DNA from: Desulfobacterales bacterium
GTDB lineage: Bacteria; Desulfobacterota; Desulfobacteria; Desulfobacterales; UBA5852
DNA length: 64,000 bases
Reading direction: 5' to 3'
NCBI GenBank assembly: GCA_963674755.2
Contig: CAXXVS010000003.1
Span: 1-64,000 of the forward strand
This document shows positions 59,375 through 61,712 of the stretch, piece by piece. A program made the translations under genes and the position numbers. Position 1 is the stretch's first letter. Each line of letters opens with the position of its first letter. Below the pieces are notes generated by a model. That model searched no databases, was not told where the DNA came from, and saw only the letters and a program-made list of their open reading frames with translations.

Positions 59375-59857
59375 TCAGGTAAACCGCTTGTCCGCGCGGG
59401 TTTGCTTAACCGCCGCACCTGACTTGGCAAGCCATCCCAGCTTTTCCGGTTGCCGATGGTCGAAGCTCGGGACATAGGGCTTGATGTCCAGCAGCGGCGT
59501 GCCGCTCACAATATCGAGATCTTCAACTTCAAGGGTGGTGCCCCGGATTTCCAGCAGCCGGACGATCGAAATGCCGATGGGGTTGGGATGGTTGGGGGAC
59601 CGGGTGGCAAAAACTCCCCTGGGGGTGGTGTCCAGGAAGGGGGTCACCACGAGCTGCGAATCGCGGGTCAAGTGAAAGTGGTAAATTAAAAAGAGATGCG
59701 AGAAGCCGTCCAGGTCCTGAAGCCCCGGCTTATATTCCTCGAATACCCGAATATGGCCGCGAACCCCCGCTCCTCCGGACGCCTGGATCGGCATCCCCTC
59801 CCGGTCCTTAAAGGGGGTTTCGATAATCCCGATGGACTTATAATAAATGGATTCCAT
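59375..59857 (-). CDS. tsaA: tRNA m6t6A37 methyltransferase TrmO/TsaA
   Basis: IGIIETPF, GVFATRSPNHPNPIG, GTPLLDIKPY. Confidence 0.9.
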   Translation of the reverse strand: MESIYYKSIGIIETPFKDREGMPIQASGGAGVRGHIRVFEEYKPGLQDLDGFSHLFLIYHFHLTRDSQLVVTPFLDTTPRGVFATRSPNHPNPIGISIVRLLEIRGTTLEVEDLDIVSGTPLLDIKPYVPSFDHRQPEKLGWLAKSGAAVKQTRADKRFT

Positions 59858-60088: not shown

Positions 60089-60379
60089 TCAGTCTTTTTC
60101 CGAAAGGCCTTCCCGTATCATTTTCGCAGCGATGCCGTCACTGTCGATCTGATAGCGCCCCTCAGCAAGGCGGGTTTTGATCTCCGCGACCTTATCTTCA
60201 CGGATATCGGGCAGGGCCGCCAATGCCTGCTGAGCTTTGATCAGCTCCCGGGCTTGTGGTGACAGCGAAACCTTATCGCCCGGCTGACCCGCGGAGTTTC
60301 TTTTCGCAGAGGCTTCGGCGACGGAATTCTTGGAGATCTTTACAATGGTACTTGCCGCTTGATGTTCGCCAATTTTCAT
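60089..60379 (-). CDS. flgM: Anti-sigma28 factor FlgM
   Basis: MKI start, DKVSLS, PDIREDKVAEIK...GRYQID...IAAKMI. Confidence 0.88.
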   Translation of the reverse strand: MKIGEHQAASTIVKISKNSVAEASAKRNSAGQPGDKVSLSPQARELIKAQQALAALPDIREDKVAEIKTRLAEGRYQIDSDGIAAKMIREGLSEKD

Positions 60380-60430: not shown

Positions 60431-60528
60431 GCCTCTGGTGCCGACGCTCCGGTCAGCCAGCGAGGCCTTCGGGTTGTCGGTTGTGAAAAAGGCCTTGACG
60501 GCCCAAAATCGCGTCTTATTGTGAAAAA

Positions 60529-60665
60529 AGGAAACAGCACGCTGTTTCCTGTCCTTTCTCCAACAAAATGAAAACCGGTACCCTGCCATCGTCACCGGTT
60601 TTCACAAGTCCTAATACCTCCTGCTCGACCAGCCGGGAAGTTGCCCGCTTCCCGGCTGTTTTTTT
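60529..60665 (+). ncRNA. Candidate small RNA, ~137 nt
   Basis: TTGACG-N16-TATTGT upstream; three perfect inverted repeats, the last followed by T7; CU-rich linkers. Confidence 0.55.
60630..60665 (+). terminator. Intrinsic terminator
   Basis: cagccgggaag-ttgcccg-cttcccggctg-ttttttt. Confidence 0.85.
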
Positions 60666-60728
60666 GTTATTCCTCAGGTTGGTTTTCCAAAACCATTATC
60701 TGCGACCGTCAAAAGGAGGCCCCTAAAA

Positions 60729-61712
60729 ATGAAAGCCATTGTTGTCCGATCCAGCCAGGACGTCGTCGACCTATCCTGGGAGGATGTATCCGATCCCGAG
60801 CCGGGGCCGGATGAGGTTTTGCTGGATATCCATGCCACAGCCGTCAACCGCGCCGATCTCTTGCAGGCCCGGGGACTCTACCCGCCACCGCCCGAGGATT
60901 CCCCTATCCTTGGATTGGAAGTCGCCGGGCAAATCAAGTCGGTCGGCTCAAGGGTCGTGGCCTGGAAGCCGGGTGACCGTGTCTGCAGTTTGGCCCTAGG
61001 CGGAGGATATGCCGAGCAGACCGTCCTTCCCGAGGGGCTTCTGATCCCCCTCCCGAAAGATTGGACCTATGTGATGGGAGCCGCCGTACCGGAAGTCTGG
61101 CTGACGGCCTATTCCAACCTCTGCCGGGAAGGCGCCTTGCAGACCGGCCAAACCGTCCTGATCCACGCCGGTGCCAGCGGTGTCGGCACCGCAGCCATCC
61201 AGCTTGCTCGCGAATGGGGTGCGCAGGTCATCGTCACCGGGGGATCAGCGAAGAAATTGGCGCGCTGCCGCGAACTCGGCGCGTCCGGGGCCATCAACTA
61301 TCATGAAGAAAATTTTGCGGAAGCCGTGATGTCTCTGACCGAACACCAGGGGGTCGATCTGATCCTGGATTGTGTCGGCGGATCTTATCTGGGAAAGAAT
61401 ATCGCCGTTCTCAAACCGTACGGGCGCCTGATCACCATCGGTCTGATGGGGGGCACCAAGGGCACACTGGATTTAGCTGCTGTGCTGATGAAAAGCCTGA
61501 CGCTGAAAGGAACACGGCTGCGGGCGCGCTCGCGGGAGGAAAAAGCAGATATCACCCATCAATTCCGGGATCGGGTCTGGCCGCTCATGGTCGCCGGCAA
61601 GATCTACCCGATCGTGGACCATGTTTTCCCGATTGCCGATGCCGGCCAAGCCCATGAATACGTTAAGAAAAACAAGAATATTGGAAAAGTGGTCCTGAAC
61701 GTGCGTGCGTGA
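60729..61712 (+). CDS. NAD(P)H:quinone oxidoreductase (PIG3 family)
   Basis: VNRADLLQ, GLYPPPP, LGLEVAG, HAGASGVG, NIGKVVL; RBS aggagg. Confidence 0.92.
   Translation: MKAIVVRSSQDVVDLSWEDVSDPEPGPDEVLLDIHATAVNRADLLQARGLYPPPPEDSPILGLEVAGQIKSVGSRVVAWKPGDRVCSLALGGGYAEQTVLPEGLLIPLPKDWTYVMGAAVPEVWLTAYSNLCREGALQTGQTVLIHAGASGVGTAAIQLAREWGAQVIVTGGSAKKLARCRELGASGAINYHEENFAEAVMSLTEHQGVDLILDCVGGSYLGKNIAVLKPYGRLITIGLMGGTKGTLDLAAVLMKSLTLKGTRLRARSREEKADITHQFRDRVWPLMVAGKIYPIVDHVFPIADAGQAHEYVKKNKNIGKVVLNVRA

Follow-up and report, generated by a model that had tools for sequence, protein, structure and literature searches.

The streptococcal csRNAs are described as RNAs of 87-151 nt with stem-loops at both ends, which are complementary to the Shine-Dalgarno (SD) sequence and the AUG and block translation (PMC4152353). 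In Xanthomonas, sX13 folds into three stable stems and presents C-rich unpaired motifs to G-rich sites near the start codon, and Hfq is dispensable (PMC3771888). RsaE of Staphylococcus and LhrC of Listeria, both counted among the UCCC-motif sRNAs, block initiation by means of unpaired C-rich motifs, and RsaE, which controls metabolism, is expressed independently of Hfq (PMC2790875; PMC4152353). From a sulfate reducer, the trans-acting sRNA DseA of Desulfovibrio is known, a SAM-I riboswitch which targets sahR (10.1101/803072), and the main text of a survey of Rfam-type sRNAs in sulfate reducers never mentions dsrA (PMC11124144). On the mRNA side, the STAB-SD of Bacillus thuringiensis cry3A is a stretch of the 5' UTR that resembles an SD but is not followed by a translation start, and which binds the 30S subunit and blocks RNase J1 (PMC4113751). 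A search of the literature, supplementary motif catalogues excepted, yielded no description of the RNA reported here or of sRNA control of dsrAB, nothing joining dsrAB with post-transcriptional sRNAs in sulfate reducers, and nothing on a conserved upstream motif linked to aprBA and dsrAB.

The element lies at 60495-60665 of the window, by which we mean the whole stretch of 64,000 nt from a Desulfobacterales bacterium that was analysed. The original prediction had read here, from the letters alone, a promoter, two inverted repeats (IR1 and IR2), a linker with acctcct and a terminator with seven T residues, and every one of these parts is present exactly where it had been placed (Table 1). Its statement that no plus-strand gene upstream needs this terminator agrees with the orientation of the nearest upstream genes, flgM and trmO, which are both encoded on the minus strand. 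The conserved loop 2 complementary to a start codon and the candidate target dsrA were both missing from it. On the plus strand the segment 60525-60670 is predicted to fold into three hairpins with -52.9 kcal/mol (z = -7.1; none of 200 shuffles is as stable), leaving both linkers and loop 2 unpaired. The orphan flgM has its own sigma-70-like promoter-like site at 60430-60403, and a second flgM is found in the flagellar cluster (G000:C2:1073988-1074305, G000 being the window's genome). Between the terminator and the RBS of the oxidoreductase a near-perfect palindrome (60680-60695), possibly an operator, is seen in this genome only.

Table 1. Coordinates of the element, its neighbours and the two leader motifs in the window's genome.
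Feature	Position	Strand	Remarks
Sigma-70-type promoter	60495-60522	+	-35 at 60495-60500, 16-nt spacer, -10 at 60517-60522
Predicted small RNA, ~138 nt	60528-60665	+	start inferred from the -10 position
Hairpin 1	60529-60550	+	variable sequence, conserved structure
Linker 1	60551-60568	+	U/C-rich single strand; UUUCUCCA in 22/29 copies; possible third seed
Hairpin 2 with conserved loop	60569-60604	+	8/9 stem pairs covary
Loop-2 seed	60584-60593	+	core GCCAUCGU, complementary to start-codon context
Linker 2	60605-60629	+	anti-SD motif 60615-60622, its acctcct at 60616-60622; extension to 60626
Intrinsic terminator	60630-60665	+	stem 60630-60658, U7 60659-60665; stem sequence nearly invariant
trmO	59375-59857	-	upstream neighbour
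Orphan flgM	60089-60379	-	divergent neighbour, outside the element; TIGR03824 over cut-off
PIG3-family quinone oxidoreductase	60729-61712	+	downstream neighbour; TIGR02824 over cut-off
dsrA leader motif	L248:8003-8016; dsrA at G000:C3 303922	-	~90 nt upstream
aprB leader motif	L408; aprB at G000:C1:114793	-	~92 nt upstream

Scanning the element against Rfam returned nothing near a gathering score, and the same was true for five homologs; the nearest model is LhrC, whose 20.1 bits (E = 6) fall short of its gathering score of 110. With covariance models the element scores at E 8e-35 to 1e-29. It could have been a dispersed genomic repeat, an alternative not borne out by the genome of 6.7 Mb, in which it is single-copy, and in every genome that has the RNA one match per genome is found. 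The single RNA run contains no piece over the element; it holds a 217-nt piece on the quinone oxidoreductase as well as dsrAB pieces, none of which lies on the dsrA leader. Because this run is stored as contigs, which drop short RNAs, the gaps at the element and at the dsrA leader carry no weight.

The RNA proved to be conserved in relatives: of the 17 genomes of one Desulfobacterales family 12 have a homolog, as do at least 21 metagenome contigs. BLAST detects full or partial homologs in nine of the 12 other genomes of the window's genus. Covariance models bring in the family's two remaining genera with a single genome apiece, and the second of these genomes, G014 (E 1.4e-9), was no part of the training set. 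Where a record with the motif carries a name, it is Desulfobacterales, Desulfobacteraceae or uncultured delta proteobacterium. Five family genomes are left without the RNA (G008, G009, G012, G015 and G016): in G012 a contig starts just downstream of the RNA locus, in G008, G009 and G016 the oxidoreductase match is missing too, and in G015 flgM directly adjoins the oxidoreductase with no RNA in between. A weak match in G015, not recovered by covariance model R3, was dropped along with the distant ones below. The same genome has an element of promoter, hairpins and terminator with C-rich linkers (L123:1501-1635, G015:C68:21986-22120), a separate sRNA candidate and a non-member by model R3.

A pattern scan of metagenomes gave at least 117 stretches, at least 21 of which are members; 96 of the 117 metagenome matches listed and 55 of 63 genome pattern matches were discarded as non-members. 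Beyond the family, nothing credible was found under strict filters in 151 genomes of the order, 151 genomes of the class (the two sets overlap) and five picked genomes. Weak distant matches in G037, G049, G017, G036, G068 and G086, one in Desulfomicrobiaceae and three on viral contigs (23-25 bits) either have no seeds or score far below the true members, and were rejected. The RNA occurs in one family, and this family carries sulfate-reduction genes.

After removal of two duplicates and two truncated copies, 29 distinct full-length copies formed the working set. In alignment A8, which was fitted to the covariance model, 89.9% of the cells pair, both sides change in 22 of the 29 pairs, and the covariation exceeds that of every one of 500 shuffles and of six slid controls. 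A plain MAFFT alignment of six copies gives the same picture, with six pairs and none of 500 shuffles as good. Covariation in relatives, proposed as a check in the original prediction, is found, and the three helices persist. Hairpins 1 and 2 covary freely and their stem sequences vary (in hairpin 1, nine of ten pairs in A8 have changes on both sides). The terminator is built otherwise, its 9-bp core being identical in 27 copies and its loop motif kept in 26. The promoter layout with its 16-nt spacer, judged by consensus matches with unmapped ends, recurs in 27 of 29 copies. Linker 2 has URCCUCCU in all 29 copies, followed after one variable purine by the extension CUC in 24. The full core of loop 2, GCCAUCGU, occurs in 20; its single positions are identical in 24-27 copies each, those flanking it in 18 and 17. 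Seven copies are without the full loop core or without the extension.

This pattern of conservation fits a free-standing RNA whose function would be carried by its single strands, and we consider the element probably to be a trans-acting base-pairing sRNA of a new family. That the element is a type I antitoxin, or the mRNA of a small peptide on one strand or the other, is extremely improbable: the minus strand has SD-like text and individual genomes offer short ORFs, but the 29 copies share no ORF with an RBS on either strand, the element is single-copy, and a second complementary locus is absent from the genome. A minus-strand reading, as an SD with short ORF or as a GGA sponge, was also rejected, as there is neither a shared ORF nor CsrA and the T-tail behind hairpin 1 exists in the window's genome only. 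The RNA might instead bind a protein or sponge another RNA through its linkers and its terminator stem-loop, the invariance of which exceeds the need of termination alone. We hold this to be very unlikely, given that the conserved single strands complement SD and start-codon sequences, that 6S, SRP and tmRNA are encoded elsewhere in the genome, and that CsrA was not found. The element matches none of these three housekeeping RNAs, and such an identity was discarded. For Hfq (PF17209) and for CsrA (PF02599) the 97% complete genome has no match, and an Hfq-dependent sRNA and a sponge of the CsrB/RsmZ type were rejected on these grounds.

The original prediction had left two choices, an independent regulatory RNA with unpaired C/U-rich segments directed against RBS regions, or an attenuator of the downstream gene. 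The first is supported at the level of sequence, because promoter and terminator are conserved, the stems covary, the single-strand motifs are kept and the neighbours change. There are three types of upstream neighbour, a divergent flgM, a co-oriented MFS gene and a co-oriented gene with an aldehyde-dehydrogenase domain, and flgM takes this place in only five of 29 copies. Of the second choice, the location held up: in 28 of 29 copies the element has the fixed position 5' of a co-oriented gene that is typical of riboswitches and attenuators. This gene, at a distance of 61-329 nt, is a redox gene: 22 copies have UXX-star selenoprotein family 1 in this place and six have the oxidoreductase. As a cis-acting leader, the element would control read-through into one or the other of these genes, and its anti-SD may mask their RBS. 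Such a role is consistent with the unusual invariance of the terminator stem, with a read-through fold which pairs the anti-SD with the oxidoreductase RBS, and with the lack of a strict second promoter in 16 of 28 copies, the window's genome among them. However, the antiterminator that an attenuator calls for did not appear, since folds without the terminator cost 13-15 kcal/mol (calculated for the window's genome only). Twelve of 28 copies have a second promoter-like site 3' of the terminator, from which the gene could be served on its own; the downstream gene, its RBS and the distance all differ between copies and the RNA shows no corresponding difference, and a riboswitch match in Rfam is absent. 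Because a redox gene so constantly follows, we retain a cis role as a distinctly unlikely reading. The UXX-star selenoprotein family 1 (e.g. L099:1751-1954 and L103:162-365) is itself absent from the window's genome. Two tRNA-Sec are called in G000 (C1:791274-791365 and C2:1226048-1226145).

For the trans-acting sRNA preferred here, the start region of dsrA, the gene for the alpha subunit of dissimilatory sulfite reductase, is the candidate target. Loop 2 has a perfect 10-nt match across the dsrA start codon, and linker 2 a 7-nt match to the adjoining SD. The target scan was run on a home-made set of 5527 genes from our own gene caller with a simplified energy model of our own; raw duplex energies without accessibility gave GC-rich noise only and were abandoned. 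When accessibility is taken into account, loop 2 puts dsrA at rank 7 among the 5527 genes and linker 2, at the RBS, at rank 728; by best single site dsrA reaches only rank 68. Its start context ACGAUGGC is found in 14/14 family genomes, in 3/29 other families of the order and in 0/27 other members of the phylum. By comparison, the triplet at -3 to -1 is invariant in none of seven control gene sets with 11-14 genomes and in one of 27 with 6-9, a count from which dsrB and rpsG were omitted for their mis-called starts. The invariant block of dsrA lies precisely opposite the eight loop positions that are conserved, and the flanks vary on both sides. A combined pattern of SD plus start has 131 matches in eight genomes; dsrA is matched in all eight and is the only gene start that recurs in the 60 of the 131 matches examined. 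In G004, dsrA (L259/L263, G004:C18) is split over two frames, probably by an assembly error.

The same sRNA could, with a generic anti-SD and anti-AUG repertoire, serve other mRNAs as its real targets, the match to dsrA being due to chance. Several genes equal dsrA at single sites; for loop 2 these include, to judge from their sequences, a gene similar to NAD synthetase and rplK. Shuffled versions of loop 2 attain the dsrA score in 1/3000 cases, and therefore two to four of 5527 genes should match equally well by chance, as is observed. The anti-SD can pair with any strong SD, and the 7-mer complementary to it is present in 146 genes. The linker-2 extension adds nothing significant (219 of 1500 flank shuffles equal it), and dsrA explains neither linker 1, for which no consistent target was found, nor the invariant terminator stem-loop. 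Against this explanation, which we rate as rather unlikely, rplK keeps its ACG context in only seven of 14 genomes, no other gene start recurs among the pattern matches examined, and dsrA alone is strong at both sites.

A second possible site lies further upstream. In 14/14 family genomes the dsrA leader has an SD-like motif 85-100 nt 5' of the start which no start codon follows, about 60 nt 3' of a promoter-like site that serves as the predicted transcription start; elsewhere in the order the motif occurs in its exact form in 15 of 29 other families. A similar motif precedes aprB in 15 of 25 aprB-like loci of the family, all of the main type and none of the second-paralog type, and in 20 of 29 loci of the order. 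Neither motif has a match in Rfam. Regarded by analogy, these leader motifs are candidates for stabilisers of mRNA and merit attention in their own right. In the window's genome about ten further genes carry such a start-less SD-like motif. Many family genomes have a second aprB-like paralog (L422, L423, L425-L432), which lacks the leader motif and has no aprA match in the locus retrieved; the aprB of G003 (L420, G003:C11) has a disturbed start, probably an assembly error. In G014 (L418, L122) a linker-2 segment is, by eye, complementary to the aprB RBS over 9 nt, with 4 more across a bulge.

Linker 2 can pair with the upstream motif of dsrA over 12-14 nt in 8/8 genomes of genus g1, the variable purine being bulged, and over only 7-8 nt in G013 and G014; in G004 both seed changes become G-U pairs with it. 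Combining the best sites of loop 2 and linker 2 between -150 and +25 places dsrA second of 3114 genes and as the only one equally good at both sites, by a score that was chosen once dsrA had already attracted attention. The window's genome has two genes for RNase J.

Other observations weigh against dsrA. Loop 2 of G005 and G013 has lost its complementarity to a dsrA site that is itself unchanged, and in G008, G009, G015 and G016 the site is kept and the RNA was not detected. The upstream motif is spread over the order, far more widely than the RNA and also where no RNA was found. Position -5 is mismatched in G000, G003 and G007 and shows the sole apparent compensatory change between RNA and target (G002 versus G001 and G010); the complementarity is conserved and covariation between the two partners is almost nil. 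The invariance of the dsrA site throughout the family may reflect shared descent, related genomes not being independent. G006 and G011, with degenerate seeds and no dsrA match, were rejected as a natural experiment; aprA (both) and dsrD (G006) sit at contig edges, and their dsrA gaps are for this reason assembly gaps.

Taken together, we propose that a conserved single-copy gene is transcribed on its own into an Hfq-independent RNA of ~138 nt, the unpaired segments of which would pair with mRNA initiation regions and repress translation. On dsrA, loop 2 would cover the start codon from -4 to +5, and linker 2 would pair with the SD or with the start-less motif ~90 nt upstream. Occupation of the latter might drive off a 30S subunit that protects the mRNA and leave it open to RNase J. 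This model as a whole, an Hfq-independent sRNA repressing initiation with dsrA as its most likely target, has in our estimate about an even chance of being correct; taken for itself, the claim that dsrA is a real target is plausible and somewhat short of even. More doubtful is a wider version in which the RNA, imitating the tail of the 16S rRNA, would strip protective ribosomes from the start-less SD motifs that Desulfobacterales conserve in the dsrAB and aprBA leaders and cover the dsrA start, thus delivering the mRNAs to RNase J and throttling sulfate respiration.

Central steps of dissimilatory sulfate reduction are encoded by dsrAB and aprBA, and transcripts of dsrA commonly serve as markers of activity. 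If the model is true, the key enzyme of the sulfur cycle would be subject to a further level of control, a post-transcriptional switch on dsrA, and Hfq-independent sRNA control would operate in a little-studied phylum. Even without the target, the 29 covarying copies define a well-delimited RNA family that is missing from Rfam.

Compared with the known systems, the element resembles the csRNAs in that sequences complementary to the SD and to the AUG are unpaired, here in separate segments. It differs from them in that a hairpin loop carries the anti-AUG sequence and a separate linker the anti-SD, in being single-copy and in belonging to a different phylum, and the csRNA family gives no Rfam match to it even at E up to 10. 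With sX13 it shares three stems and unpaired motifs facing start regions; sX13, however, uses three apical C-rich loops, whereas two of the motifs are linkers here, loop 1 is variable and not C-rich, and Rfam again gives no match. Its unpaired C-rich motifs, predicted to act on initiation, recall RsaE and LhrC, but the element has no conserved UCCC, the LhrC model staying below its gathering score and RsaE giving no match, and unlike DseA it has no riboswitch match. The STAB-SD is an analog of the presumed target site and not of the RNA: the dsrA and aprB leader motifs match its description and RNase J is present, although the dsrA motif lies ~60 nt from the predicted transcription start, unlike that of cry3A. 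By analogy, the element would work in the manner of the Hfq-independent C/U-rich sRNAs of other phyla, being itself a member of none of the csRNA, sX13 and RsaE families.
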